Numbered from the stretch's first letter, positions 1 through 19,600 are shown. The stretch: 64,000 nt of DNA from an uncultured Verrucomicrobiae bacterium (GCA_963788655.1 CAWBHS010000003.1:1-64000), one strand, 5' to 3'. Numbers and translations are program-made. The notes: generated by a model from the letters alone, not told the origin.

Positions 1-259
1 CGCCCAGAATCATGACCTTGCGACGGTCGGAGGGTTGCACTTCGTCGTCGCCACGGTCGTACGTCGAATAATAATAAGGCGTGTAGGCCTCAAATTCGGC
101 GGCACAGGTATCCACCAACCGGTAACTGGGAATCAGGCCGAGTTGCTTGCGTTCGGCCCGTACCTGGTCTTCGGTTCGCCCGGTCAAATGGGCGATTTGG
201 CGATCTGAGAATCCCAGCGATTTGGCTTTGGCCAAGAGATCTGCGTTCAAATGTGGCAT
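1..259 (-). CDS. carB: Carbamoyl-phosphate synthase large subunit, C-terminal-half gene (split carB); 5' part only, runs off the window edge
   Basis: Manual translation from ATG at 259: MPHLNADLLAKAKSLGFSDRQIAHL...RLVDTCAAEFEAYTPYYYSTY...RKVMILG, the CarB oligomerisation-domain/second ATP-grasp junction. Not in the ORF track because there is no stop in the window. Confidence 0.9.
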   Translation of the reverse strand, partial: MPHLNADLLAKAKSLGFSDRQIAHLTGRTEDQVRAERKQLGLIPSYRLVDTCAAEFEAYTPYYYSTYDRGDDEVQPSDRRKVMILG

Positions 260-377
260 CGTGTTTTTGGCGAACCACCGCGGGCAGATGGGGCCGGCGA
301 AGGTCCGGTAAATTGGGGCGATACCATGCCAACCGCCGGACACGGTGTCAAAGCGAAAGGGGAACGTAAAAAGTCCG

Positions 378-630
378 AGGACCGAAGGCCGAAATCCGAA
401 GGAAATCCGTTAGCGTATTTCTGAAACAGATCGCTCCACACAGAATTTGGAGAGCTGCCTTTCACCGCCAAGGCACGAAGAGCGCAAAGGTCTTGCGTTC
501 ACGCCTTTGCGCTCTTCGTGCCTTGGCGGTGAAAAGAAGCCTGCCATGTGCAGTGACCAGCGCGACAGTCTTGAACCTTCGGTCTTCGGTCTTCGGGCCT
601 CTTTCGGTCTTCGGTCTTCGGAATTCGGAT
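378..630. repeat. Composite repeat: inverted heptamer arms (GACCGAA/TCGGTCT-type) around a perfect 31-bp hairpin
   Basis: 460-490 TTTCACCGCCAAGGCACGAAGAGCGCAAAGG is the exact reverse complement of 504-534. TCGGTCT/TCGGAAT heptamers at ~579-630 mirror GACCGAA/ATCCGAA at ~380-410. Confidence 0.85.
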
Positions 631-671
631 CTGGGCGGGAATGCTGCGAACGAAGCACCGAAATCAAACCG

Positions 672-747
672 TGGTGGAGCCATGGGGAGTCGAACCCCAG
701 ACCTTCTCATTGCGAACGAGACGCTCTACCAACTGAGCTATGACCCC
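672..747 (-). tRNA. tRNA-Ala (anticodon CGC)
   Basis: Reverse complement reads GGGGTCATAGCTCAGTTGGTAGAGCG-TCTCG-TT-CGC-AA-TGAGA-AGGTC-TGGGG-TTCGACT-CCCCA-TGGCTCC-ACCA: 76 nt, D and T loops, encoded CCA. Confidence 0.97.
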
Positions 748-879
748 AAACCAATGCCGGTTAAGTTAATGTCTGGCCAACAGCGTCACAAGAAAAAATT
801 CGTTGACTTTGGCATGGGAGGCGACGTAAATACATTGTAACGACAATGCATGGCCTTTGGATATACGAGCGGTGCGGTT

Positions 880-1170
880 ATGGACTTTGATTGGAACAAC
901 CCTCCATTCAACTTGAGCAGCTCTTTGAGTATTAAAGACATCGAAGAATCGTTTGAAGATCCGTTTGCTGTTCGGCTCCTGCCGGATTCACCGCGTTTCT
1001 CCGTTCAAGCCCGCTATTTCAATCTGGGAATGTCGGCGGCGGGGACCGGGGTTTTCAGCGTTTATCGAACCAACGGCAAAGTGTTTCGGATCATTTTTGC
1101 TCGCCCCTTCGAGTCGGAGGAGCGGCTGTTTTACGAGCGGAAAGTCAATCGCCTGCTCAACAACTACTAG
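880..1170 (+). CDS. BrnT-like (RelE-fold) toxin-family protein, atypical
   Basis: MDFDW start, IEESFEDP, RYFNLG, RIIFAR...EERLFYE match the BrnT/DUF497 pattern; paired with a downstream RHH protein. Confidence 0.7.
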   Translation: MDFDWNNPPFNLSSSLSIKDIEESFEDPFAVRLLPDSPRFSVQARYFNLGMSAAGTGVFSVYRTNGKVFRIIFARPFESEERLFYERKVNRLLNNY

Positions 1171-1191
1171 AAGAACTCTACTTTCAACCAC

Positions 1192-1491
1192 GTGAACGCC
1201 ATCGCCAATTGGGAAGAAGTGCCGCTCTTCGACATCGAAGAGGCCGAAGCCGCTTTTTGGGCGGAGAACCGGCTGGAACTGCGGCTGATGGACTCGTCCG
1301 TCGCGGACGGCTCGGAATTGTCCGAGTCGGTGACCATTACCTTGCGCATGGACCCGCGAATGCTGGCTCGGATCAAGCGCCTGGCCCGGTCGCGGTATCT
1401 GAATTATCAAAGCATGATCAAGCAATGGCTGAGCGAACGGATGGAAACGGAACTCCGCGACCGCGAAATGGCCGGCCGGCAGAAACTTTGA
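1192..1491 (+). CDS. BrnA/CopG-like antitoxin with C-terminal ribbon-helix-helix
   Basis: VPLF..EEAEAAFW N-terminus; C-terminal VTITLRMDPRMLARIKRLARSRYLNYQSMIKQWLSE. Confidence 0.75.
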   Translation: MNAIANWEEVPLFDIEEAEAAFWAENRLELRLMDSSVADGSELSESVTITLRMDPRMLARIKRLARSRYLNYQSMIKQWLSERMETELRDREMAGRQKL

Positions 1492-1507
1492 GCCTGGAAA
1501 ACTCTGG

Positions 1508-2434
1508 ATGAAATCATCGCTACCCACAATTTTGAAGCGCGCCGCCAAGCATGAAACCGCGGTCAGGACTGCGCTTTGCCGTAGCGCACATTTTCCATCG
1601 GCTGGATTCTTGAACCGGAAACCGGTAGGGCGAGACTCCGTCGAGCCCAAACTGCACCGGCTCGGCTGCGTTGAACAGAAAACGGCATCGTCGGGAAGGC
1701 TTTGGTGTTCGCCAGTCAGGCATATCCCTTTGGTCGTTTCGAGATTCACGAATGCGCTTCGGGGAAGTCAGGGCTCGACGGAGTCTCGCCCTACCGGGAG
1801 CTTTCGGAAAACAATTCGTCATCGCGCCTTCACGTTGATCGAGTTGCTGGTGGTGATTTCGATCATCGCGGCGCTGGCGGCTTTGACGCTCACGGTGCTG
1901 CCGGGCACCAAAACCTGGCGCGTCCGCCGGGCGGTGGAAGCACAGATGCAGCAGTTGGAATTGGCGATCCAGAATTACAAAGACACGCGCGGGTATTATC
2001 CGCCTTCCAACCCGCGATCCTCTTCCACGAACGTGCTGTTCTATGAACTGGTTGGCGCGCAGGAAGAACAATCTGGCAAGTTCGTTGTGATGGGCCGGAC
2101 CAACACGATTTTCAACGGCCAGATTGCCCAGTTGTATGGCGATCTCAACCGCCGTCGTATCTTGAACTCTGCTTCGCCGGATGCGCCCCCCAATTACAAC
2201 GATCCGGATGCCAACACCGGCTCGCGCAGTTTCCACGCGGAAATCAAAGACAACCAAACCAAAACCACCGCCGACGGCATCACCCTGCTGGCCGTGCCGG
2301 CCCCGGGGACGAACGGGGACTTCAATGTGTGGAATTATGTCGCTCCGGGAATTCACAACCCGGAACGCTTCGATCTCTGGACCGTAGTCAAACTCGGCAA
2401 GAAAACGAACCTCATTGCCAACTGGAAGGAATGA
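1508..2434 (+). CDS. Prepilin-type (GspG-like) pseudopilin with a 107-aa REP-containing leader
   Basis: RA|FTLIELLVVISIIAALAAL N-methylation motif (F+1 at 1829); LELAIQNYKDTRGYYP helix; HNPERFDLW C-terminus. Confidence 0.85.
   Translation: MKSSLPTILKRAAKHETAVRTALCRSAHFPSAGFLNRKPVGRDSVEPKLHRLGCVEQKTASSGRLWCSPVRHIPLVVSRFTNALRGSQGSTESRPTGSFRKTIRHRAFTLIELLVVISIIAALAALTLTVLPGTKTWRVRRAVEAQMQQLELAIQNYKDTRGYYPPSNPRSSSTNVLFYELVGAQEEQSGKFVVMGRTNTIFNGQIAQLYGDLNRRRILNSASPDAPPNYNDPDANTGSRSFHAEIKDNQTKTTADGITLLAVPAPGTNGDFNVWNYVAPGIHNPERFDLWTVVKLGKKTNLIANWKE
1622..1797. repeat. Inverted pair of GTAG-type REPs (GTAGGGCGAGACTCCGTCGAGCCC); further copy at 5671-5695
   Basis: 1624-1648 and 1771-1795 are exact reverse complements; GTAG foot followed by an imperfect hairpin. 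Confidence 0.9.
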
Positions 2435-3711
2435 AAATGAAACGCTCAATTCCCATGGGCCGGGCCGCTCAGCAATGGCGAGCGGGTTTCGCCAGCGACC
2501 GAAACCAGTCTTCGGCGGGCGTTCGCCGAATCATCCGGCTGCCGGAAAACGCCGCGTCATTTCTGGAATTGCGGAAGTCCGCCTCGTTACCTCGGCGGCT
2601 ACGGGGGCAGGGGGTGCTGAGGAGTCTTCAAGCTCCGCAGACCACTGGAATTTTCGGACAGTTCCTTTCCCCTCACCCTGACCCTCTCCCCAGGGAGAGG
2701 GAACAGCAGCGAACCTGCGTTGGTAGGTACCAGCCGGTAGCCAACTTTGACGCGCGGTCGTCGATTCTCCCTCTCCCCGTGAGAGAGGGCCGGGGTGAGG
2801 GGGAACCGGGCGGCCCCTGGGTTCTCGGCGCAACGTGTTCGCCTGACCGTCCAGAGCCGTCAGCGCTGCCAAATGCCGGTGGACGTCGCCATCGGCTCAT
2901 CGTGAGCTGGACGGAAACCTCCTGGCAGCCGCGTTGGCGTCACCGCGATCCGGCTGGCGACACCACCGTCATTCCCGAAGTCCGCCGTCCACGGGTTCCT
3001 TGTCTGCCCGAGCCGCGTCGGCGTATCTCTTTACCTATGAAATCCAATATCCATTCTCCCAAAACTCCGCCGCCCCGTTCTTCGTTGGGAGCGTTTACCT
3101 TGATCGAACTGCTGGTGGTCATTTCCATCATCGCCATCCTCGCCGGCCTGCTGTTGCCCGTGCTGGCGGGCGTGCGCGAGAAGGCAAAGATCAAGCGGGC
3201 CGTGGTCGAGATCAACGCCGTCATAAATGGCATTGCGCAATACGAAAGTGCCTACAGCCGCCTGCCAGCGCCCAAGGCAGAAAGTGAAGCCATGCAGGAT
3301 TATACTTTTAGCTATCCGGACCCGGCCACGGTTCCTGCGATGCCGCAGCCGCCCGCTAACGCCAAGTTGCCCAATTCTGTAATCATGGGGATTCTGTTGC
3401 TGGATAAAAGGAACCCGAACTATGCCGAAGACTTGAAGCGAAATCCACGGCAAGTGGTGGCGCTCAATGTCAAAGAAGCCGCCAGCCCTAGTGCTCCAGG
3501 TGTGTATCCCCCAGATCCTGTCTATCGTGATCCGTGGGGCAATCCCTATGTGATCACCTTGGATTTGAATTACGATCAGAACTGCGAAGATGCTTACTAC
3601 TTCAAGAAAACAGGAGTCATCCGAGGAAAAGTAGCCATCTGGTCCATGGGGCCCGACAGTGCGGCCGGAAACGCGGACACCGACCGCGACAACGTGCTAA
3701 GCTGGAAGTAA
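2431..3711 (+). CDS. Prepilin-type (GspG-like) pseudopilin; start either 2431 (221-aa repeat-filled leader) or 3037 (19-aa leader)
   Basis: GA|FTLIELLVVISIIAILAGLLLP (F+1 at 3094), DPWGNPY and IWSMGPD GspG-type motifs. ATG 2431 overlaps the previous stop as ATGA and the frame is open throughout. Confidence 0.85.
   Translation: MKMKRSIPMGRAAQQWRAGFASDRNQSSAGVRRIIRLPENAASFLELRKSASLPRRLRGQGVLRSLQAPQTTGIFGQFLSPHPDPLPREREQQRTCVGRYQPVANFDARSSILPLPVREGRGEGEPGGPWVLGATCSPDRPEPSALPNAGGRRHRLIVSWTETSWQPRWRHRDPAGDTTVIPEVRRPRVPCLPEPRRRISLPMKSNIHSPKTPPPRSSLGAFTLIELLVVISIIAILAGLLLPVLAGVREKAKIKRAVVEINAVINGIAQYESAYSRLPAPKAESEAMQDYTFSYPDPATVPAMPQPPANAKLPNSVIMGILLLDKRNPNYAEDLKRNPRQVVALNVKEAASPSAPGVYPPDPVYRDPWGNPYVITLDLNYDQNCEDAYYFKKTGVIRGKVAIWSMGPDSAAGNADTDRDNVLSWK
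2576..2802. repeat. REP block: GTAG-type copy (2576-2602, reverse) plus inverted CCCTCACCC/GGGAGAGGG pair (2669-2701, 2769-2802)
   Basis: AGTCCGCCTCGTTACCTCGGCGGCTAC; CCCCTCACCCTGACCCTCTCCCCAGGGAGAGGG; the second family recurs at 31960-32580 and 35625-35814. Confidence 0.8.
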
Positions 3712-3715
3712 CCCC

Positions 3716-4586
3716 ATGAAATCCACACGCCACCCCACCCTGCCGGGCACCGGAAGACTGGCCAGGACTTTGCCGTCCACGGGGGCGACGACGGCGGGAC
3801 GTGCGCACCAGCGGCGGTCGGGATTCACCTTGCTCGAGCTGCTCATCGTGATCGGCATCATGGCCATGATTGGCGCGCTGGTGGCGCCGTCACTCAAGCG
3901 CATGAAACGCGTGGATATCATGAGTTCGGCCAACCGTCAGATGTTGGACGACTTGGCCGAGGCGCGACGAAAGGCCATCGCCAACCGGGCGACCGTCTAT
4001 GTGGTGTTCATGCCTCCGGCAACCGACTTGCCCAAGAATTATTCGCAATTGGACCCCAGCAGCACGACCATGGTTCTGGCCAACCAGCAGACCGCTTATG
4101 CCATGTTCACCCGGCACAGCGCCGGCGACCAGCCAGGAACCGAGTATCCGCGGTATTTGCGCGGTTGGAAGACGCTGCCCGAGGGGGTGTTCATTCCTGC
4201 TTGGAAGTTCGGTTCGACCGATGTCGCTGTCGGCGCCAATACAGTGAAGCATTTCAGCTACACCGTCGCCAATGCTCCAGGCAACAATCGTCCGTTTCCG
4301 GTTCCTACCGTTGAGAGCCCGGTTCGGGAGTGGGAGATGCCATATATCGCCTTCGATTACCAGGGACGGTTATGCCGCGCCAGGAGGGCGGCAGTGTCCG
4401 GAAGACCAGTTCATCCCGTTGGCCATGGGCACGGTGGAGCCCGATATCGACGCCAATCAAAATCTGGTTTGGGGACCAGCCACGGAGCGGGAAGATCCCC
4501 AGGGCAATTCGACGAACAACTACAATCTCATCCACATCGACTGGCTCACCGGGCGAGCCACGCTGGAACGACCTGAAATCCAATGA
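3716..4586 (+). CDS. GspH/FimT-like minor pseudopilin (Verru_Chthon D-like); one frameshift near 4380
   Basis: SG|FTLLELLIVIGIMAMI, DDLAEARRKAIANRATVYVVF; after a +1 shift the C-terminus reads NYNLIHIDWLTGRA. Confidence 0.8.
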
Positions 4587-5212
4587 AGCTGCCACTGCCT
4601 CCATCTCTTCAGCGCCAGCGGGCCTTCACGATGGTTGAGATCGCGCTGTGCCTGGCGATCATCGGCTTTGCCATCGTGGCCATCATGGGCGTGCTGCCCT
4701 CGGGGATGACGGTGCAGCGGGACAACCGCTGGAACTCGATCGTCAATGAGGACGGCCAATTCTGGCTCAACGCCATTCGGGAAGGCGCCCGCGTGGTGCC
4801 TGAACTTGAGCAGCGCGTTCAGCGCATTTGGATTAACACCAACGAGGTGAGCAGCGCAGACCGGCAGAATAGCGAGCAAATCATCGGCCTGCTCAGCCAA
4901 CCCGGCACCACGAACAAAGCCTTGGTGCGCGCCTTGAGCGGTTCGGCCGCCGAACTATCATCCGCCGCCGAGGTTGGTCTCGACTACGTGCTGTTCACCA
5001 TGATCCAGCCGTTTGAGGGTGGTGGCCCGAACCTGGCTTCCAATTTGTACGACGTGCGCCTGGTCTTCCGTTGGCCAGCCTACCCGAACGGCTCGTTTGG
5101 CCGGTCCAAGAAAGTCTTCCGCTCCCTGGTCCGGGGGCAATTGGTGGAAACCAACAACCTGTTCTTTTTTGACAACCAGCAACTCAAACTGACGCTGCCC
5201 CCGTCCCCGTAA
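4583..5212 (+). CDS. GspI/PilV-like minor pseudopilin (Verru_Chthon B-like)
   Basis: RA|FTMVEIALCLAIIGFAIVAIMGVLPSGM; LYDVRLVFRWP; ATGA overlap with the upstream gene. Confidence 0.85.
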   Translation: MKLPLPPSLQRQRAFTMVEIALCLAIIGFAIVAIMGVLPSGMTVQRDNRWNSIVNEDGQFWLNAIREGARVVPELEQRVQRIWINTNEVSSADRQNSEQIIGLLSQPGTTNKALVRALSGSAAELSSAAEVGLDYVLFTMIQPFEGGGPNLASNLYDVRLVFRWPAYPNGSFGRSKKVFRSLVRGQLVETNNLFFFDNQQLKLTLPPSP

Positions 5213-5215
5213 GCT

Positions 5216-6530
5216 ATGCGCCCGCTCCGATCCCATGCCCTATTGCTCCCGCCGCGTTGCTCTTCCCCGGTAGGGCGTTCCCGTAGCGCAGAGTTATACT
5301 CTGTTGTATCGCCGAATTGCATTCGGCAGGGTGTCCGAAAATTCGAGGCCGCCCCGGCTGGGAGTAGCTCTCGGCAGTTTGCAAACCTGCGATCCAGCGC
5401 AGCGCGGCCCGGCCGCAACCCAATCGGAGCGCGGACATTCCTGTCCGCTTGGAGTGGCTCGAATCGGCAAGCGGACAAGAATGTCCGCGCTCCAACGCCT
5501 CCGACAGAATCGTCGCGGCCGGTGCGGCTTCAGAACGATAAGGATAGAGTGCGACTCGGCGCTACAAGTTTGGCAACTGCAAAGTCTCTGGATCGTGAAC
5601 CCACCGGTTTTTCGCAAGTGGTTGGCGAGGCGCCAACCACGGCGCCCGAGGCGGGCGCGCTCCCCGGTCAGGGCTCGACGGAGTCTCGCCCTACCGGAGG
5701 TCGGGGGGAACGAGATCGCGCCGGCTTTTCCCTGTTGGAAATCATGGTGGCGGTGTCGCTGCTCACCTTCATCATGATTGCCCTGACGGTGATGTTTGCG
5801 CAAACCAAGAACGCCGTCCGCGCCGGCTTGAATCAGGTGGGCGTGCTGGACAGCGCCCGGGCCACCATGAGCTTCCTCTCGCAAACCATCCAGGAAGCGG
5901 CCCCTTCCCAGCAACCGGACATCGTGAATCTCCATGTGGGCTGGACCGGCGGTTACACCGAGCAAGAACTGCCCGGCGATCCCAATCCGCGCTACAATCT
6001 GCTCCAGGATTTCTTTGTGCTTTCGCGTTCGAATGATTATCTGGTGCGCCAGCCAGTTCGCCTTCCTGCCCAATGAAGCGGCTCGGGGTGTGGCCACCCT
6101 CTATTACTCCACCACCAACGCCCCGTACAAGGAACCGTATCTCATTGCGACCACCAATTTGGCCGAGCGTTCCGCCTGGACCAACGGGCCTTCGCCCTAC
6201 CACCGGCTCGTCGATGGGGTGGTGAGTTTGAGCGTGTTGGCATACGATCGGGACGGAGAGTTGTTGCCCGGGACCAATGCCGTGACTGAAGATTACTTGT
6301 TCAGCCAGGATCAACTCTCGTATACCTTTTTGAACTCGAATCTCCCCGCCGCCGTCGAGTTGGAACTCGGCATACTCGAGCAAGAGACGCTGGACCAACT
6401 GCGCGCCGTGGCGGGCCCCGACCTGGCCAACCACACCGCGCTGACCAACTACCTGGCCACCCGGCCGGAGACGGTCCACATTTTCCGCCAGCGCATCGCC
6501 CTGCGCGCGCAAAACCGAATTGTCCCCTGA
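5216..6530 (+). CDS. GspJ/PilW-like minor pseudopilin (Verru_Chthon C-like) with a 170-aa REP-filled leader; frameshift near 6041
   Basis: AG|FSLLEIMVAVSLLTFIMIAL (F+1 at 5726); after a +1 shift: LVDGVVSL...LPAAVELELGILE...FRQRIAL. Confidence 0.8.
5283..5695. repeat. Cluster of four REP-like families inside the pilin leader
   Basis: GTAGCGCAGAGTTATACTCTG (5283); inverted pair GGAGCGCGGACATTCCTGTCCGC 5426-5448 / 5471-5493; TTGGCGAGGCGCCAACCACGGCGCCCGAGGCGGGCGCGCTCCC ~5622-5664 (also ~10510); GGGCTCGACGGAGTCTCGCCCTACC 5671-5695. Confidence 0.85.
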
Positions 6531-6534
6531 TGCC

Positions 6535-9500
6535 ATGAACCGTCGTCGCTCCCAACAAGCCGTTGCCCTGGTCATCACCCTCATCATGCTGGCGGTCATC
6601 ACCGTGGTAGCCGTGGCGTTCCTGGCGCTGGCCATGCGCGACCGTTCGGCGGCCTCCACCGCCGACAAGCTCACCCGCGCCCAAGTCATGGCCGGAGCCG
6701 CCCAGGCGCGCCCCATTGCCGAAATCGGCGCCCAGATCTTGGAAGGCCGCACGAACGGCGGCACCAGTTTGATGGGCTTTGACTTGCTCGTTTCCCACAC
6801 GAACGACACCGGCGATTTCGGAGCACCGGTATTCGTTGATCCAGCGACGCTCGCCGTAAACCGGCCGCTGGTCGAAGCCGATACCAACCGCACGTTCCTG
6901 GATTTGAATCGCAACGGCGTTTACGATCCACCCACCAACGGCTTGCCGGGCGATCCGCAATGGCTCGCGGTAAGGGACCAAGCGGGGCCGCTTTCCGATA
7001 AAAACCATTACATCGGCCGGATCTGTTATTTTGTCTTGCCGTCCGGCAAATCGCTTGACTTGGGCGTCATTCACAACCAGGCCAAACCCGCAATTATCGA
7101 GGCACAAACGCAAAGCTTGACGCCTAATCCGAACTCGGAAGGCTACATTCGTGAATTCGGGCTGGGTTCTTGGGAGTTGAATCTGGCGTCGTTCCTGGTG
7201 GATCTGAACACCAACGCCTGGCATTCGCCCTTCGATCAGGTGTATGGCTCGGATTACGTCTATTACGACGATCCCACGACTCCCAACATGGGCGCCGCCT
7301 TTGCCGATGCGTTCGATTTACTGCGCTATCGGTACGCTTCAAACTTCACCACATTGAGCAATGCGTCGCCGGTCCTGGCCGAGGTCGGGGAACAAGGCAC
7401 CAACAATTGGGCTGGCTCCGACTCACCCCGTCACTATTTCGATTTCGACGCGTTGTTCGATGCCCAGCGTCCTTACTCCAACTTTGTGAAGGCGCTGAAA
7501 TGGGTGCAAACGCCTGCTCCCGATGGTGCCGGCACCAATGACTACAACCGCCAAACCTTCTACCGCCTGTTATCGCAAATGAGCATGGATTCAGTGCCCG
7601 AAACTCCGAAGATCAACCTGGATTTCATCAATGTGGACCCGGACACGTTGACGCCCACCAACTTGGTGGAAAATGGCTACTACGATTCGTGGACGAACGA
7701 TCCGAGCCTCTTCTTCCGGGCCGTGGCGCGCCGGTTGTTTGCGGCCTACAACCTGCCCGGCGTCATCGTCACGCCGACCAATTTCGCCATCCCCATCGCG
7801 CCGACCAACTATTACACGCCAGCCGTGCAGCGGGTGCTGCAACTCACCGCCAACCTTTACGATGCCACTCAGGACGGCCCGGTGTCCGGATTGAGCGAGT
7901 CGCTCTACTTCCCCACCGTGTTTCGTCCGTTATTCGAAGACACGGGCAGTGACCGTGACCATCACCAATTATTTTGAATCCAACGGTGAAGAGGCCAAGT
8001 CCGGCGCCGTCGCGGGACGCATTTTGATCAACGAACTCCTGGCCAAGAACAAGTGGCACGACTTGGATGATCCGACCTACAATGCCACACCCATTCGTCC
8101 CGACGACTTTGTGTTTGGCATCCCGCTGATCATCGGCGCCAAGAAGGGTTATCCCAATTTCAACGAATACACGATGGACACCGCCGTGACGGTGACCCGC
8201 AAGCTGGAATTGGTAAGGCCGGACACCGACGTTCGAACCCAACCAGACCAATCAGATGTATGTGTTGGCCATTACCAACCGCATCGGCCTGGAAGTCTGG
8301 AATCCCTACGGACAGGCGTTTCCTTATCCCTTGCGCATCCGGGTGGAGAACGACACTCGGACGACCCTTTCGGATTCCGCCGGCAATCCGATTGCGCTGA
8401 CCAATTCGTTTGTCAGCACGAACACCACCGTGGACACCAACTGGCTGCCAGGAGCATTCGCCACCATTGCCTACACCAACCTGACGATCCTGCCCAGCTT
8501 CCCGCGCCAGGAATACAGTTTTACCTTGAACGGTTTCAAATCCGACGGCGAAACCGAGAAGAATGGCTTCCCGATCCCGGATTGGCAACTGGGCGTCACC
8601 AACCGATTGTTGTTTCTGATGTATGATCCGGTGACGTACCGATTGGTGGACTGCGTTGATCTGTCGAACTTGGGGCACAGCACCAACATCATGAGCGCGT
8701 TGCAGGCGGATAAGACCTCCGCTGGGGACGTGTGGAATACCAACCGCGCCGGTGCTTCCGTGTTCATCCCCACGGAAGGGATTAGAAACCAGATGAGGAT
8801 CAGTCTTGGCTTGTATACCCACAAAGAGGACAACCTATGGGCCAAGTACTACGAAGGGGTTACGACGTTTAGAGACGATCTCGTCGCGAATCTGAATGGC
8901 TTTGTGTATGCCACCAACGCCGGCCTGGGATTGGTCATCGAGACCGGTTTCAATCCCATCACCCGGCTCTATCTTACCACCACCTGGCAGGCCAACGATC
9001 CGCTGCTGCACTCCATGATTTGGGACCTGGAAGATGCTCGTCCGCCCACTGAAACCACCTACCAGGGCTATTCATACCCGCAGGATTTCCCTGGCGGCGA
9101 TTACAACCTCAGCATCACCAACCGCCGCTATTGGCCGTGGCCTTACAGCAAAGGCGATGATCGTAAGCATCCCATTCCCTTCGATCTCGCGGTGCAGGAT
9201 CCGATGGTGCGTGGCCCGGATGATTGGGATTTCCCGGAAGGTAAATTGCCCAACCTCGGTTGGCTCGGCCGCATTCACCGCGGCACGCCCTGGCAATCGG
9301 TTTACTTGAAGGCCGAACCCGCCGCCCGCGAGGACTGGGCGAAGCAAACCACGGGCGCGGCCGCCTACATGGATCGTTGGGCGGACAAATATGTGAATAA
9401 TCTTTTGACCAATCCGGCTCCGTCCTTGGTAGAAACCAACCGGGTGGATGCCGAAGACCTTGGTTGGTTGCCAACTCATCCCACCAGTGACTGGCGGTTG

Positions 9501-10199
9501 GCGGACCTTTTCACCGTGGCCCCCAATGCCAACGCCACGCGCGGCACGCTGTCCGTCAACCAGCCCAATCTGGCGGCCTGGTCGGCAGTGTTTGGGGGTA
9601 TCCCCGTGATGACCAATGTGGGCACGCCAAAGATCGAGCCCTCTCCCGCCACACCGGCTACCGTCTTGAACGCCGATGCCAATTTTATGGTCACGAAACA
9701 ATTCCTGCCCGGCTCACCGGAACTGGAGCAGATCGTGGACGGCATCAACCGGGTGCGCGACAACCTGCCGGGCAAACAATTCAATCGCCTGAGCGACGTG
9801 TTGGCCGTGCCGGAATTGAGTGTCAACCGTCTGGAGACTCTTCCCAATGGTACGCCGCGGCGTTCGCCGTTCTTGTTCATGCAGACACCGAATCCGATGG
9901 CAGACGACCAACAGCGGGCCGGCCTGACCGATGCCGCCTACGAAGCCTTGCCGGCGCAAGTTCTGTCCCTGCTGCGCGTGGGGGAACCGCGAGTGGTGAT
10001 TTACGCCTACGGCCAATCCCTCGAACCCGCCGGCGCGGGCTCGGTCAATAATTTTGGTGTGCCGGACAACTACCGGGTGACCGCCGAATACGCCACCCGC
10101 AGCGTGGTGCGTTTCGAGTTTGATAGCGACCGATCGGACACCAACGCCGTCGTCATCCGCCCCATCGTGGAAAGCTTTAACGTCCTGTCGCCGCACTGA
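6535..10199 (+). CDS. Large GspK/PilX-like pilin-cassette protein (Verru_Chthon A-like), ~1,220 aa; two frameshifts (~7945, ~8245)
   Basis: RRRSQQA|VALVITLIMLAVITVVAVAFL (PilX-type, no E+5); three consecutive ORFs in +1-shifted frames; C-terminal VVIYAYGQSL...YRVTAEYATRSVVRF. Confidence 0.8.
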
Positions 10200-10649: not shown

Positions 10650-13600
10650 ATGCATTTGAGTACTAGAACGTGGTACAGCATCAGTGTGCTGTGCCTGCTT
10701 GGAGCCATCTATTTTTGGTGGCTGGGTAATCAGCATCCACCCCAACCGAAACCCGCGCCCGGCCCGGCAGCCGTTTCGACGAATCCACCGGCCCCCACCA
10801 ATCATTCTCCCGGCGGCACTGGCAATTTGCTCCCATCGACCACTCCCACCCGTCCGCCGCCGCTCCTCTCTGTCCTGGCGGCTTCAAACGCGCCCACGGT
10901 CCAGGCCAGTGCGCCGCTGACGCCGCGTCCCGGCAAGTATCCGTACCGCCGGCGCAACACCACCGAGTCGATCCCGGAATTGATCCATCGTGAAACCTCG
11001 CTCCTGTTGCAGAACGCCCTGCTGGACACCGCCCACCCCGTGGCGTTGAACCTCCCGGCCTCGCTCCGGGCGACAGAAGATCCGGGCAGTTACGTGATCC
11101 AATCCCGTGGCCCGATGACCGACGCGTTCCGCATGTATCTCCAGGCCGCCGGCGCGCAGATCATTGCTTACATTCCCAACAACGCCTACCTGGTGCGCGT
11201 CTCCGCCGACGGCGCCAGCAAGATGGCTTCGCTGGGTCTGACCCAGGCAGTGCTACCCTGGGAACCGTATTACAAGCTCGAGGCGCCGTTGCTGACGTTG
11301 GCCGTCGAGCAAAAGCCGTTGCCCGCCGACACGTGGTTGAACGTGTTGTTGTTCCCGACCGAGCAGATGCCCGACCTGGGATTGGAAGTCATCAGCCAGG
11401 ATCGCACGCCCTTTGGACCGTTGTTTGTGGTGCGCGCCCAACCGGACAGCCTCGTAACCCTCGCGCAACGGCCCGAAGTGCAGGACATCGCGCGGTATCG
11501 TCACCGCGTGCCGGCCAATGACCTGACCCGCAAGCGCCTGAACATTTCCAGCAACACCACCGCCACCGTCAACTACCTCGGCCTGACCGGTAACGGCGTG
11601 CTGGTGAACGTCAACGACACCGGTGCGGACACGAATCATCCGGACCTGTACCCGCGCATTTACACGGATCCGGTGACCAGCCCGTTTCTCACGAACGAAC
11701 CGGCGCACGGCACGCACGTTTTGGGCACACTCCTGAGCAGCGGCGCCCATGGCCCTACGGCGAATGGCACGAATGTCTTTGGCTCAACCAACGGCGCCAA
11801 CTTCCGCGGCATGGCCAGTTCCGCCTCGGCCTATTTGCTGCCCATCCAACTCCAAATCGGCACCAACCACGTCAAGGTGCCGGATTGGTATCTCCAGGAA
11901 CGCGCCGCCCTGAGCAACGCCTTCATTTCCCTGAACAGTTGGAACTACGAATACAATCCGCTGTACGATAATGACATTTTCTACGATATTTCGGCCGCCA
12001 GTTACGACATGGCGGTGCGCGACGCGCTGCCCAGCGAGACCGGTTCCCAGCCCTTGTGTTATGTGTTTCCAGCCGGCAACGAAGGCTTCGGGACCACCGA
12101 TGGCCGGGGCGGTTCGCCGGGCAGCATCCTGTCGCCGGGCACGGCCAAAAATGTCATCACCGTCGGTGCCGTCGAGAACCTGCGCGAGATGACTTTCTCC
12201 GGAAGCGATACCAACGATGACCTGGCCTATTACGAGGAGATCACCGACAGCGACAACGAAGTGGCGGACTTTTCGAGCCGGGGCAACGTGGGCTTTTACG
12301 AGGGCGAACGCCTCTATGGCCGGTTCAAACCGGACGTGGTGGCGCCGGGCGTGATGGTGGTTTCCACCCGGCCCCAGAACTGGACCAACCCGGACACCAA
12401 CATCGCCGCGCTGGATGCCCAGCTCGGGACCGCCGCCAGCAGTCCCTACGGCTACGAATCCGGCACCAGCATGGCGGCCGCCTCCGTGTCCGGTTTACTG
12501 GCCCTGATGCAGGAATATTTCGAGCAACGGATGGGGCTGACGAACAGTCCGGCGTTGATGAAGGCGCTGCTCATCAACGGCGCGCGCTCGCTCAGTTCCT
12601 CGTACGATTACCGCGCGGAAAGCTTCCTGAACTACCAGGGTTGGGGCCTGCCTAATCTCACCAACAGCCTCCCCTTGGGAACCAACGCGGCCACATCGGG
12701 TTCGCTGTTCATGATCGATCAAATCACCACCAACGCACTGGCCACCGACCAGGTTCACACGCGCCGGGTGACGTTGAACAACACCAACGCCCGCAATGCG
12801 CCGTTGCGCATCACGCTGGTGTGGACCGATCCGCCGGGCCATCCCAACGCCAGCCTGGTCAAGCTGGTCAACGACCTCGATTTGGTGGTGACAGAAGCCG
12901 GCACCAACAGCAGTGGGGTGACCAGTTCGAACAGTTTTCTCGGCAACCATTTCCCGCTCGGTTCGACCTTCTCCGCACCGGTCGATCTCAATGGCACCAA
13001 TGCCACAGTCAATCTCGACCTCGCCCGGGATCGGCTCAACAACGTGGAACAAATCGTTCTCGAACCACCGCTCGCCAGCGCCTACGACATCGCGGTGGTC
13101 GGCCGCCGGGTGAACGTGAACGCCGTCACCGCCCACACCAACGGCATCGTGCAGGATTACGCGCTGGTGGTTTCGAGCGACGACCGCACCAACGCCAACT
13201 CGCTGACGCTGACCGACGTGAGCTTTGCCAGCACCAACGGCCCGCACGTGGTCGCGTTGACCACGCTCACCAACGGCACACCTTTCTTCAACCAGAAGCA
13301 GCGCGTCGGGGCCAACTCACCGTTGCTCGTCTCGACCAACGGCGCCACCAACCAGTGGAACTTCTACCAGTTCACCACTCCCACCAATGCGTCCAACGCG
13401 CTCTTCGTGCTGTTCTACACGCCCTTTGCGCTGAACCTCTCACGCCCGCGTTATTCCGAGGCGGACATTGACCTGTACGTGACCACGGACAGCAACCTGT
13501 TGACCTTGGATGACACGCTGTTCGCCAGCTCCAACCTCTTGCGATCCGTGCAACGAAAGGCTTACGAATTTGTGGCCATCACCAACGCCCAACCCAACCA

Positions 13601-16600
13601 GACCTTTTATGTGGGGGTTAAGTCGGAAGACCAAATGGCCGCCGAATACGGCATCTTTGCCGGATCCTTCAGCGAGCCGCCGTATGACCAGCGCACCAAT
13701 GGACCGGTCGTGATCCAAGGCTTTCCCGCGGACATCCCAGACGGCACGCCCTCGGTGCCGGTTGGCGCGGTGCCCATCATTGCATTCTGCCCGTATCACA
13801 TCACCGTCCGCAACGTGGTGGTCACCAACACGCTGTTCCACGAGTTTGGCGGTGATCTGTTTGGCCAACTGGAACATGAGAGCCAGGTAGCGGTGTTGAA
13901 CAACCACCGGGCCTTCAGCGGAGAAGTCACGTACATTTACGATGACAGTGGTTCCGGGAAAATTCCAGACAGCCAACCCTCCGACGGCCCGCCCAATTTG
14001 CGAAATTTTGCCGGGACGGACGGCTATGGGCCATGGACATTAACCATGGTGGACAACGCGCTGTTCCACACCGGGCGCGTCGAGCAGCTCAGCATCGAAT
14101 TGGAGCCGGAACCGCCACGGCAGCAAAATGACTTTGGTTACAGCTACACCTACACCGGCACCGTGCTCGGGGGCTTTTGGGACCGCTTCACGGCGGACGT
14201 GCCCTTCGAAGCCACCAACCTCACTGTCTGCGTCTATCCGCAGAACGGGCCGTTGGACGTGTACATCCGCTATGGCCAGGATCCGGACCAGACCAACTAC
14301 GACCATCACGTCCTGATCCAGCCGCCGGGCGATTGCATCACCATCACCAAGTTCGACTCGCCGCCGCTGCGGGATGGGCGGTATTACATCGGCGTTTACA
14401 ATCCCAACAGTATTGACGTGCAATACACCATCGTGGTGTCGGTCGGCTGGGATTTGCGGCCCGGTTTTCCGCTGAGTTACCGGGCCAGCGGGATCACGCA
14501 GCTCCCCGACGATGCGGTCACTAACTCGGTCATCCATGTGCCGGACAACCAATATGTCGCCAGCGTGGACGTGGGGGTGCGCATCGTACATCCGCGGGCA
14601 TCTGATCTCTCGTTGCACTTAATCAGCCCCCAGGGCACGCGTCTGCTGTTAACCGAGAATCGCGGGGGTTACAATCCGGATGGGTACGGGGCGAGCACGC
14701 AGACCACCAACTTTTTCCAGGCGACTGCCAATGGGGGGCCAAATCCGGATACCAACACGATTGGCACAACGTTCAACGAAGGCGTGATCACGATTGATTA
14801 CAAGTTTTACAATGTTCCAGATCGGATGACCGTCTATTACGACGGTAACTTGATTTTTGATACGGGAACCATTTCCGGTTCAGGAACGATTGACATCCCG
14901 TACGGACCGGGCGTCTCGACCGATGTGGTGATCGTCATGAACGAAACGGGCGGACCACCTGGGACGGCTTGGGATTACACCGCCACGATTGTCAGCGGCC
15001 AATACATTTACACCACGTTTACCGAGAACACCAACCTGACCACCACGCCCATCAAATTCGGCATTCCGCCATACACGAACAACCTGGGACTGACCAACCT
15101 GGGCATTCCCGTTCCGGTCAGTGATTTCGATACCGTCGCCGCCACCAACTACCTCATGGGCGACACCTTCGAAGGCTGGCAGGTGGACTCCGGCGAGGTC
15201 GAGGTGATCAACGACCCAACCCTGGCTCACACCGGCAGCAACTTCCTTGCGCTGGCCAACGGGCGAATCGTCCGCACACTTTCGACCATCCCCGGCACGG
15301 ACTACCGGCTAACGTATGCGGTGCGTGATCCGGGGATTGTCGGCTGGTGGCCCGGGGAAACCAATGCCAACGACATTGTCAACGGCAATGATGGGGTCCT
15401 TGTGGGGCCAGTTACCTACGACGTGGGATACATAACCAATACGTTCCAGTATGCATTCCAGTTCAACGGGAGCGATAACGTCGAAATCCCGGATGCGCCC
15501 GATCTGAATCCAACGAATGGAGTGACCCTGGAATGCTGGGTCAAAATGGACCCCAATCCACCACGGACGTTCATGGACATTTTTGGCAAGGATGGGGAAA
15601 TTGCCAACCGTCAATACGACTTGGGGCTCTCGGCACGTCGCAAGTTTCGCGCCCATATCGGGGCTCCCCCCGGCGCGCCGGCGGATTACCTATACCTGGA
15701 CGGCACCACCGCCGCCCAAGCGGACCAGTGGTACCACATCGCCATGACCTATGATTTAAATCGACTGGTGCTTTATGTGGATGGTGTTTTGGAAGTTAGC
15801 GTGCTGACCAACCGGCCGATGGCGATTACGACTGAACCCCTTCGGATCGGTGGCGGCCCCCCGGTGTCGGGGCGCAGTTATTACTTCCCCGGGCTGGTCG
15901 ATGAACCGTCGCTCTACAGTCGGGCGCTCTCACCGACCGAAATCAGCGCCATCTACGACGCCGGTCTGGTTCGGGTGGGCAAGTGCAGCATCCCCTCCTG
16001 CAAACCCAACGGCCTGGTCACCGTGCAAGGCCTGTCGCGAACCGTCATTGGCGGACCCACCTGGCAAACCAATTCGGTCGTCTTCACCGCCAACAGCACG
16101 AACACTTACATGGAGATTGACGGTAATCCGTTGTCACTGTTGTTGGACAGTTTTGCGCTGACGCCGGTACGTGCGCCGGCCTACTACCTGCCAGAGGAAC
16201 CGCTGACCCCGTTGCGCGGCCAGTTGGCGGCCGGAGATTGGACCCTGGAAATCTGGGACAACCGGGTGGGCGCCGTCGCCACCAATGTTCTCCTGAGCTG
16301 GAAGTTGGACATCAGGTATATCAACACCAACCCGCCGGCCATCACGCTGCCCCATGGCGAGTGCTTGACGAACACCGTGGCGGGCGGTGGCACCGTCTAT
16401 TACATTGTCAACGTGCCGCCGGCCGCCAGTTTCGCCACCAACAGATTGCTCTCTCTTTCCGGTGGCGACTTGGATTTATATTTCAACCAAAACGCTCTGC
16501 CCGTTGGCAACATCAGCGGCGACACCAACACCGGCCCGAACGTCCCGGTCGGCGGCGGGGACGTTCTGCTCCTGGACAACATCACAGGGGGGGAAGCGGT

Positions 16601-19600
16601 CATTTCGACCACCGGCCTCTTTACGACGAATTACAGCACCGGGGTGACCAACCAGGACACCGCGCCGGTCCTGCTGCGCAGCCGGACCTACTATCTGGCA
16701 GTCCAGAATCCCGATCCCACCAATGCAACCGACTTCCAAATCTGCCTGCAATTTGACCGCATCGGCTCAGCGCTCCCGGCTTTGGTGGGCCTAACGAACG
16801 GACTGGGTTATACGAACTGCCTGCCCGCCGGCGCCATGGACTACTACGTGTTCAACGCTTCCAGCAACGCCGAGGCGGTGACTTTCGAACTCACGAACCT
16901 TACCGGCAACGCCGACCTGTACGTCCAACACGGCCCGCCGCTGCCGACGAACTGTTGATTTTCTGACCAACAGCGTCAACCTCGGCACGGCTGATGACTC
17001 GATCTCGATCACCAATTCCACCAACGCCACCGTCGCCGGCCTTTGGTATTTGGGTGTCTATAATGCCGATGCCAACGACGTGTGTTACGAAATCGTTGCC
17101 TCCGAACGGGTGGGGCCCGTGCCGATTCCGCTCACCAACGGTGTGGCGTATTCCAATACCGTCGTCTGCGTTTCCAATGCGGTGCCCGACGGCATTGACT
17201 ATTTTACCTATGAAGTCAGCCCCAACGCCGCGCGCGTGACATTCGACGTGTTTGACCTGAGTGATGACGTGGACCTGGTCGTCACCACAAATCTCCCCCT
17301 GCCCACCTTGACCGCTTATGACGACGGCAGCTTCAATTTAAACTTGGAGCCCGAGGAAGTGATGCTCACCACCAATGCCGGCTTCCTCCCGCCCACCGCG
17401 GGGACATATTACATCGGTGTTACGCACTATGGGCTGACCAATTGTCCGCTGACCTATACCGTCATCGCCACGGAATACACGAATGACGTGATCATTACCC
17501 CGCTCCCCAGCGGCGTGCCGCAAGCCGGTGTGCTCGCCGGTCCATCGGTCGTGGCAAGCGGCTTCAGCGCCAACTTGACCATGTCCCTGCTGTCGGCCGC
17601 GCCGCCCAGCCAGACGGTCAGCAACAGTCCGGCCTATTACAGTTTCAACGTGGCCACCAACGCCCTCCAGGCGAACTTCGAAATCCTCGACGCTGACGGC
17701 GACGTCGATTTGTACATCAAACCCGGCCTGCCGCTGCCGGCCACCAATTTGTTTGCCTACGCCAGCACCAATACCGGCTCGGCCGATGAGTTCATCGCCG
17801 TGGCCACCAACTCGACGCCCACTGCATTGCGCCCGGGACCGTGGTACCTGACGGTCATCAATCCGAACACCAACGTGGTGCATTTCAATGTGAAGGTCAC
17901 CCAGTTCATCGAGGGCACCAACGTGACGCGCCTGTCCAATAGCGTGCCCTACACGAACCTCATCGCTTCGACCAACGGCCCCATTCCCGATGGCAGCGAT
18001 TATTACATCTTCACCGTCACGACGAACGCCACCTGGGTTTCCTTCGACCTGCTCGAACCCAGCGACAACGTGGAACTGGCCGTCCATCGGGCCACGTTGT
18101 TGCCCCGGTTGGATTACTACGATTACCTGAGCGCCAATCCCGGCACCAACGAAGAACAAGTGCTGGTCTTCACCAATTCTATTCCGGCGCCGCTCGCTGC
18201 CGGCGACTGGTTCTTGAGCGTGATTCGGTCCGGGTTGACCAATCAAACCAACCTCACCTACACGGTGGTGGCGACGGAGTTCACCAACGAACCGCCGGGG
18301 TTCACCACCCTGACCAACGCGCAACCGTACGAAACCACAGTGGCGGGATTATCCAACCAGTTCTACCGGTTCACCGTTTCCAGTAATGCGGTGCAGGCCA
18401 ACTTCGAATTGTTGAACCCGGCCGGCAACGTGGACCTGTTCATCCGGCCCATCCTGCCGTTCACCAATCCGCACAGTTACGTCTATGCCAGCACCAATGC
18501 CGGGGTGGCGAACGAGTTTATTGCCGTGGCCACCAACTCCGTGCCAGTTCCGCTGGGTTTCGGCGAGTGGTATCTGCTGGTGCAAAACCGCGAAACCAAC
18601 GCCGTGACCTACACCGTGCGCGTGACGGAATTTGTACCGGACACTCCCGGCCTCGTGGTGCTGACCAACGCCGTGCCGTACACCCGTTCGCACACCAACG
18701 ACGCCGGGCCGATCTCGGCGGGCACGGACTACTATTTGTTCAACGTGCCCACCGGTGCGATTTGGGCGGTGTTTGATCTCTTCGACGCCAGCGCTGATGT
18801 CAGTCTGCTGGTGCGCAAAGAACTGCCGTTGCCCACGCCAGCCAATTACGATTATCGCAGTGCCAACCCGTCGCCGGCCGACGAGCAAGTCCTGGTGATT
18901 ACCAATTCGGTGCCCGTGCCGCTGGCGCCCGGCGCCTGGCATTTGGGCGTGAGGCATGGCGATTTGGCTGAATCCAATCTGACGTACACCGTCCGCGCCA
19001 CGGTGTATTCCAACGCGCCACCGGTCGTCATCGGATTGACCAATGCCATCGAATACGCCGCCACGATTCCCGTGGGGAGCACGCACTACTATCAATTCAC
19101 CGTCTCCACCAACGCCGTGCAGGCCAATTTTGAATTGCTCGGGCTCACCGGCGATGCCGACCTGTTTGTCCGGCCCGGTTCGTCGTTGCCCGGCACAAAC
19201 AACTTCACCTACGCCAGCACGAATCTCGGCACCAACGCCGAGTTCATTGCGGTGGCCACCAACTCACTGCCGGTGCCACTGACGCCCGGCGATTGGTTCA
19301 TTGCCGTGGTGAACCAGGACACCAACAGCGTCGATTACCGGCTCCAGGCCACCGGGTTCGTGCCGGACACCCCGCTGCTGGTGAACCTGACCAACGGCGT
19401 GCCGGTTTTCCACACGGTCGCGGCCGGGACCGGCGAGTTCAACCATCGCACCGACTATTACCTGTTCATTGTGCCGTCGAACGCCACCTGGGCACAGTTT
19501 GAATTCCTGATCGCGCAGTTGCCGGTGGACCTCGTGGTCCGGCGGGAACTGCTGTTGCCCACGCTGGCCAACTTCGATTACCAGAGCATCAACCCCGACG

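Follow-up and report, generated by a model that had tools for sequence, protein, structure and literature searches.

Dispersed palindromic repeats in the long open leaders of prepilin-like genes in a verrucomicrobial cassette

The stretch of DNA considered here, hereafter the window, comprises 64,000 nucleotides (nt) from an uncultured soil bacterium of the Verrucomicrobiae (GCA_963788655.1 CAWBHS010000003.1:1-64000) and forms contig C3 of an assembly of 8.96 Mb in 115 contigs, with 59.6% GC, 86% completeness and 5.6% contamination; its relatives carry the labels Verrucomicrobia or Limisphaerales. Judged from its sequence, the start of the window is a verrucomicrobial cassette of prepilin-like genes lying behind a CopG-like gene, and pilin-like genes 1, 2 and 5 of this cassette begin with long open leaders that contain dispersed palindromic repeats. 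The genes are listed below, with ↓ marking the predicted cleavage site.

1192..1491, plus strand: CopG-antitoxin-like gene (PF12441, 39.1 bits vs a cut-off of 28)
1508..2434, plus strand: pilin-like gene 1; leader 1508-1828, 107 codons; A↓FTLIELL, site 1826/1829
2431..3711, plus strand: pilin-like gene 2, GspG-like; A↓FTLIELL, site 3091/3094
3716..4586, plus strand: pilin-like gene 3, Verru_Chthon D-like; 36-codon leader; G↓FTLLELL at 3821
4583..5212, plus strand: pilin-like gene 4, B-like; 14-codon leader, the ATG overlapping the gene-3 stop; A↓FTMVEIA at 4622
5216..6530, plus strand: pilin-like gene 5, C-like; leader 5216-5725, 170 codons; G↓FSLLEIM, site 5723/5726
6535..10199, plus strand: large A-like cassette gene, spread over three frames, which change near 7940 and near 8225

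The prepilin-type motif scored over the N_methyl (PF07963) cut-off of 21.2 for genes 1, 2, 3 and 5 (26.5, 23.0, 28.2 and 24.7, respectively) and under it for gene 4 (19.8), and TIGR02532 exceeded its cut-off of 16.3 for genes 1-3, with 27.3 for gene 1. Gene 2 also passed the cut-off of T2SSG (22.0), and its TIGR01710 score of 47.1 bits lay under the cut-off of 88.85. As with the Verru_Chthon cassette (TIGR02596-TIGR02600), the best NCBIfam names for genes 3, 4, 5 and the large gene were those of proteins D, B, C and A, in DNA order, but the curated cut-offs were not reached by D (TIGR02596, 32.6 vs 70), B (16.4 vs 51.4), C (16.7 vs 256.5) or A (18.8 vs 332.3). Because all four scores fall far under the cut-offs, the likeness is a resemblance in gene order and not membership; unlike the Verru_Chthon cassette, moreover, the present one is preceded by two further GspG-like genes and the CopG-like gene. 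The latter lies directly upstream of gene 1, a position that is kept across the order.

A preliminary description of this DNA had reported three very long open leaders inflated by repetitive extragenic palindromic (REP) sequences. Re-measurement from ATG to the A/G↓F site returned the same coordinates and the same lengths of 107, 221 and 170 codons for genes 1, 2 and 5. Gene 1 begins at ATG 1508, and its further in-frame starts are TTG codons at -99, -73 and -33 only. The ATG of gene 2 at 2431 overlaps the gene-1 TGA (ATGA), with further in-frame ATGs at -219, -213 and -19 (nt 3037), and that of gene 5 at 5216 lies 3 nt past the gene-4 TAA, the nearest other start being a GTG at -36. Genes 1 and 5 thus have no other in-frame ATG, as had been claimed, and their nearest alternative starts (TTG -33 and GTG -36) both lie upstream of a repeat that encodes GSTESRPT. 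The stop counts by frame, which the preliminary description had proposed as a check, were 0 in the gene's own frame of each leader and 1-7 in every other frame (4, 3, 2, 2 and 4 for gene 1; 6, 5, 6, 4 and 3 for gene 2; 1, 5, 2, 2 and 2 for gene 5). The product of the Poisson P(0) values over the three leaders is 3.7e-5, and their openness exceeds chance. A purely GC-based explanation of the open frames was discarded, since stops do occur in the five remaining frames of this DNA.

Counts of 14-mers and mismatch-tolerant searches identified six to seven repeat families in the leaders, in agreement with the earlier estimate of about six. Their genome copies, at <=3 mismatches, numbered 156 (A), 150 (B), 76 (C), 49 (D), 19 (E), 130 (F) and 128 (F2). 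The elements are placed as follows, the gene-2 block being shown by 14-mer counts and BLAST cover.

1620..1801, unstranded: REP-A doublet, two inverted GTAG-tagged REPs ~122 nt apart, inside the gene-1 leader
2577..2811, unstranded: repeat block of the gene-2 leader, with family D at 2577-2603 and an inverted family-B pair at 2653-2724 and 2748-2811
5281..5706, unstranded: repeat blocks of the gene-5 leader, with family E at 5281-5352, a family-C palindrome pair at 5421-5496, and F/F2 with a solo REP-A at 5588-5706

The doublet at 1620-1801 encodes the peptides ..VGRDSVEP.. and ..GSTESRPT.., and BLAST cover over it reaches up to 150 matches. That GSTESRPT in genes 1 and 5 stems from the same repeat was verified (1760-1799 and 5666-5698). 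Read directly, REP-A is CCGGTAGGGCGAGAC..GTCGAGCCC, with a GTAG tag and an imperfect 9-bp stem; it has the features given for GTAG-tagged REPs in the pertinent part of PMC3733652, namely the tag on a short stem-loop, many copies and frequent inverted dimers. The lone 25-nt REP of the preliminary description is therefore genuine as a repeat but not as a lone unit, since family A occurs mostly as an inverted doublet of ~172 nt (51 copies in the genome, lengths 168-180, mode 172). Genome-wide, 65 of 306 frame-by-element combinations of these doublets were stop-free (21% per doublet and frame). Nor are the leaders repeats throughout, because the bases with >=5 BLAST matches in the genome cover each stop-to-motif span only in part: 182 of 334 bases for gene 1, 163 of 656 for gene 2 and 267 of 510 for gene 5, or 25-54% of each span. 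The presence of REPs in the leaders thus stands, and repeats make up roughly one half of the leaders of genes 1 and 5 and one quarter of that of gene 2.

In predictions of RNA folding, the leaders folded more strongly than shuffled sequences (z = -3.6, -4.2 and -4.9); the REP-A arms of gene 1 formed a 27-bp stem, the family-B arms of gene 2 paired, and the family-C arms of gene 5 formed a long stem. The predicted folding fits the earlier conjecture that hairpins could tune pilin stoichiometry. The GTAG tag, the imperfect 9-bp stem, the inverted doublets at fixed spacing and the 12 matches to Y1_Tnp (PF01797) in the genome are all reminiscent of REPINs (inverted REP pairs) and of the association of REPs with REP-associated tyrosine transposases (RAYTs). 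Unlike those systems, only two Y1_Tnp matches, the weakest ones, partial and at ~25 bits, had REP-A copies within 1.2 kb, and linkage of REP-A to a RAYT was not established among the 12. The 122-nt spacer is, we take it, long for a REPIN, and the element is presumably equally like a miniature inverted-repeat transposable element (MITE).

The conservation of these frames was followed in the cassettes of 40 further genomes of the order, in addition to the one same-genus genome in the comparison set (G001). Stops were counted in three frames from the upstream stop to the downstream cleavage motif of each consecutive pilin-like gene pair, and the main junction set comprised spans of 121-620 nt (51 junctions, 28 loci, this window left out). 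The frame of the downstream gene was open in 47 of the 51 junctions, as against 18 and 7 for the two control frames, and held 10 stops in total, as against 68 and 96. Junction by junction, 21/25, 10/10, 8/8 and 8/8 were open, with genes 3-5 together at 26/26; the long junctions between the CopG-like gene and gene 1 were open in 3/3 cases. Of the 47 open junctions, 40 had an ATG <=15 nt from the upstream stop. With the control-frame rate as reference, the binomial tail for the open junctions is 1.7e-24, a value that overstates the evidence because the kinship of the genomes inflates it. Orthologous junctions were thus not broken at the chance rate given by the control frames, and the earlier proposal passed this refutation test of its own.

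The expectation that leader lengths differ by multiples of 3 was likewise borne out: junction-length differences were multiples of 3 in 17 of 22 same-genus or same-family pairs (p = 3e-5), and in 9 of the 13 pairs that differ by >=21 nt. Between the window and G001 the differences were 231, 441, 7, -126 and 382 nt, two of which are not multiples of 3 because the stop-to-ATG spacers differ. At 50-60% protein identity, G001 shares the gene order and keeps the stop-adjacent ATGs but lacks these repeats; from those ATGs, its leaders measure 24, 70-74, 34, 48-56 and 40 codons. Closer relatives that might reveal insertion polymorphism were not found by a metagenome scan (<=37% identity), a protein search (<=52%) or a genome scan (three distant loci). 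Three long leaders from other families, picked among the longest junctions, were likewise compared with their genomes: G077 gene 3 (568 nt), G031 gene 2 (467 nt) and G075 gene 5 (389 nt) match 63, 82 and 99 other places of their own genomes, respectively, and are built from dispersed repeats of those genomes. In G077 the five pilin-like genes are full-length, with leaders of 152, 87, 187, 118 and 52 codons; repeat-laden leaders are therefore not limited to a decaying cassette.

Part of the gene-2 leader is of another nature.

2896..2937, plus strand: W motif LIVSWTETSWQPRW, a conserved in-frame peptide in the gene-2 leader

This motif, with the pattern L-x-V-x-W-x-[E/D]-x-x-W-x-P, is in frame in 17 of 30 gene-2 loci across the order, its own locus L033 counted (a regular expression finds 16), usually 13-22 residues past the stop-adjacent ATG. 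Four more loci have it in the +1 frame, as a separate small open reading frame (ORF) that ends at gene 2's own ATG, and it is absent from nine, all with short leaders; no Pfam family covers that stretch. The repeat block at 2577-2811 is placed between the old start and the W motif in this genome. By this comparison, part of the 221-residue leader is an ancestral conserved coding stretch, fused or separate, and not repeat.

Larger extensions were found ahead of gene 1. The QWLSERME tail of the CopG-like gene was located upstream of gene 1 in 45 loci, the two genes being separate in 43 and fused in frame in 2: L014:2255-3199 (G037) and L086 (G112) each hold one uninterrupted ORF that comprises a CopG-antitoxin domain (PF12441, 36 bits) followed by the gene-1 prepilin motif. 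Large N-terminal extensions therefore occur in the cassette. Elsewhere, a distant metagenomic cassette (L021) was observed to carry tandem arrays of heptanucleotides (GAATGCA, ATCACGC/TCACGCA, 4-8 copies) in the leaders of four pilin-like genes (4269-4353, 5970-6104, 6935-6997 and 7887-7933), some without a start codon between array and cleavage site, and such arrays were also seen in L023, L025 and L027; a change in their copy number would shift the frame.

The genome that holds the window has 45 prepilin motifs, most with the nearest in-frame ATG 7-36 codons away. Repeats were present in the 300 nt upstream of five of these, and all five were open for >=100 codons, as against 5 of the other 40 (Fisher p = 2e-4). 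Beyond the cassette, repeat-bearing open leaders were found at three prepilin genes (C38:~6930-7408, C110:~110080-110520 and C87:~90240-90535), and that at C38:7406 has three tandem 43-codon repeat units that run up to the cleavage site, ..HAAG↓F. A further prepilin-motif gene, C48:13320, has 15 open codons upstream, none of them ATG, GTG or TTG.

The arrangement that we favour is one in which each cassette gene would start at an ATG overlapping the stop of the preceding gene or lying shortly past it, and the whole span to the G/A↓F site would be translated as a cytoplasmic class III leader, to be removed by prepilin peptidase (a Peptidase_A24 gene is present in the genome, on contig C24). Dispersed palindromic repeats, both GTAG-type REP doublets and MITE-like inverted pairs, would survive in the leader when the frame stays open, because the sequence of the leader would matter little; the outcome in this genome would be the leaders of 107, 221 and 170 codons. 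On balance we hold it probable that the repeat-bearing stretches are translated class III leaders that are kept in frame, and the leaders are probably both translated and cut off. The repeats, the open frames and their conservation across the order are observed, whereas the start codons used, the cleavage of the leaders and the tolerance of repeat-derived peptides are what we infer from these sequences. Of the earlier proposal that the disposable leader is a safe harbour for repeats, the frame-keeping is upheld by the open junctions, the length differences and the repeats in three other families, whereas translation from the distal ATGs is what these observations suggest.

Several observations weigh against this reading. 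The order-wide loci are kin, so their p-values exaggerate independence, and pairwise gap lengths showed no preference for multiples of 3 at ~60% identity (14, 5 and 14 for residues 0, 1 and 2), such lengths being so noisy at 50-70% identity that total junction-length differences were used in their place. Recognisable repeats make up only the fractions of the spans given above, the lengths of the REP-A doublets, with their mode of 172, are not divisible by 3, and very stable stems inside a presumed ORF might impede translation or be targets for RNases. For gene 2, ATG 3037 is another possible start, many of its orthologs have an ATG at -13, and the four closed junctions are all gene-2 junctions (L075, L083 and L102 with an ATG at -13; L066 with the nearest ATG at -40); gene 2 can thus work without a long leader. 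Translation might instead begin near the cleavage site, at ATG 3037 for gene 2, TTG ~1730 for gene 1 and GTG ~5618 for gene 5, or at non-canonical codons, and the repeat-laden DNA ahead of it would be either an upstream reading frame of its own or a spacer within the operon that is not translated. Such spacers are common sites of REPs, and the pertinent part of Di Nocera 2013 (PMC3733652) warns that many REPs at the N-termini of ORFs may be extragenic, with translation starting downstream. Near starts would also give gene 2 a canonical 19-codon leader and agree both with the four loci whose out-of-frame W-motif ORF terminates just ahead of gene 2's own ATG and with the short distances at most of the 45 prepilin motifs of the genome; odd starts do occur, since the open stretch of C48:13320 has no canonical start. 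We nevertheless regard this account as rather unlikely. It leaves unexplained why the distal stretches of the three leaders and of 47 of 51 orthologous junctions are open when the control frames are not, and why an ATG stands beside the upstream stop in 40 of the 47; REP-A, with GSTESRPT, would still fall within the leaders of both gene 1 and gene 5; and in gene 2 of G001 none of the codons closer than -70 is an ATG, GTG or TTG.

A different objection arises from the state of the cassette, which has four frameshifts in genes 3, 5 and A (~4370-4400, ~6040-6050, ~7940 and ~8225). The first was detected by tblastn with the G001 ortholog of gene 3, and the 1270-aa G001 protein aligned to the large gene in three pieces, in frames 1, 2 and 3; that in gene 5, which is split into the overlapping ORFs 5216-6076 and 5934-6530, rests on this split and on reading of the window and G001 translations, and would truncate the protein 117 codons past the cleavage site. 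None of the four frame changes is at a homopolymer run, by eye, and they look real rather than assembly noise because the long neighbouring downstream ORFs, of 2102 and 2994 aa, are intact. One DNA run with 5% of the sampled words yielded short fragments with no joints or indels and was uninformative on the frameshifts. The cassette may therefore be decaying or newly inactivated, which weakens the claim of present-day function here. If it were a decaying pseudogene cluster, the repeats would have gathered under relaxed selection and the three open frames would be leftovers or luck, and other prepilin clusters in the genome, such as those on C38 and C60, could substitute for it. This explanation we consider very improbable: chance openness of the three frames is itself improbable, both by the Poisson product and at 21% per REP-A doublet and frame, and the same pattern recurs at three other loci of this genome and in G077 with its five full-length pilin-like genes. 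Decay may also have set in recently, and would not erase the effect of earlier selection on the frames; recent inactivation does not account for the open frames.

Under the favoured reading, with translation of the leaders from stop-adjacent ATGs, the cassette can be compared with systems already described. In the parts of PMC3733652 that treat such elements, GTAG-tagged REPs are said to occur in the Planctomycetes-Verrucomicrobia-Chlamydiae (PVC) group, and intragenic GTAG and CGTC REPs are reported, in clusters encoding 43-82 aa, of which the N-terminal cases may be extragenic; Rickettsia palindromic elements are the subject of the corresponding part of PMC10969869. As in those cases, short mobile palindromes lie in open frames and would add peptide segments, although here translation is inferred from frame statistics. 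Unlike them, the insertions concentrate in a segment that is expected to be cut off; they attain 100-190 codons, affect more than one gene of the cassette, and are seen in several bacterial families, where the repeat families differ. Class III leaders are described, in the portion of PMC10191384 devoted to them, as cytoplasmic, variable in length and removed by prepilin peptidase, with those of S. sanguinis called 'very long'. The present leaders resemble class III signal peptides in being hydrophilic and ending in G or A, followed by hydrophobic residues of the FTLIELL type with Glu at +5. Known class III leaders are, to our knowledge, of about 5-30 aa; by contrast, the stop-free leaders across the order measure 40-190 codons from the stop-adjacent ATGs, one carries a conserved motif, and one in a single lineage a whole CopG domain. 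Literature searches on the cassette name, on long pilin leaders and on MITEs in signal peptides returned nothing on repeats in prepilin leaders. In-frame insertion of REPs or MITEs is thus already known, and what is new here is its occurrence in unusually long class III leaders.

Provided that the leaders are translated, the length of class III signal peptides can exceed several-fold that of the examples examined to date, and the cassette would be a natural case of selfish palindromic repeats being tolerated in genes since the invaded segment is discarded. The annotation of pilin-like genes in the PVC group would be affected, chiefly in the choice of start codon, and a clean system would be at hand for the effect of REP hairpins in coding RNA on translation. 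It is also suggested that prepilin peptidase may release peptides of interest in their own right, such as the W motif and the CopG fusions. A broader proposal, which we put forward as a doubtful one, is that the class III leader in this order would serve as a general slot for cytoplasmic add-ons released by prepilin peptidase (the CopG-like protein, the W-motif peptide, REP- or MITE-derived junk and, in some lineages, heptanucleotide arrays that could turn the frame on and off); on this view the cassette would be made as a series of precursors coupled stop to start, with the repeats in the leaders setting the amount of each pilin-like subunit or making it phase-variable.

The remaining features of this end of the window lie on either side of the cassette.

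675-747, minus strand: tRNA gene, the sole relevant Rfam match
850-1170: weak BrnT-like ORF upstream of the CopG-like gene

An Rfam scan of positions 1-7000 returned nothing relevant beyond this tRNA. Beside it, at 380-630, is a repeat cluster with a long palindrome (459-534) and CTTCGGT heptamer arrays; the 14-mers of the palindrome have ~23 genome copies, and Rfam gave only spurious sub-threshold miRNA matches to it. Behind the cassette, at 10650-26034, are two giant ORFs, one for a subtilase of 2102 aa with P-domain and Laminin_G_3, the other for a protein of 2994 aa that carries PPC domains, and AddB/AddA-like genes follow downstream of both.

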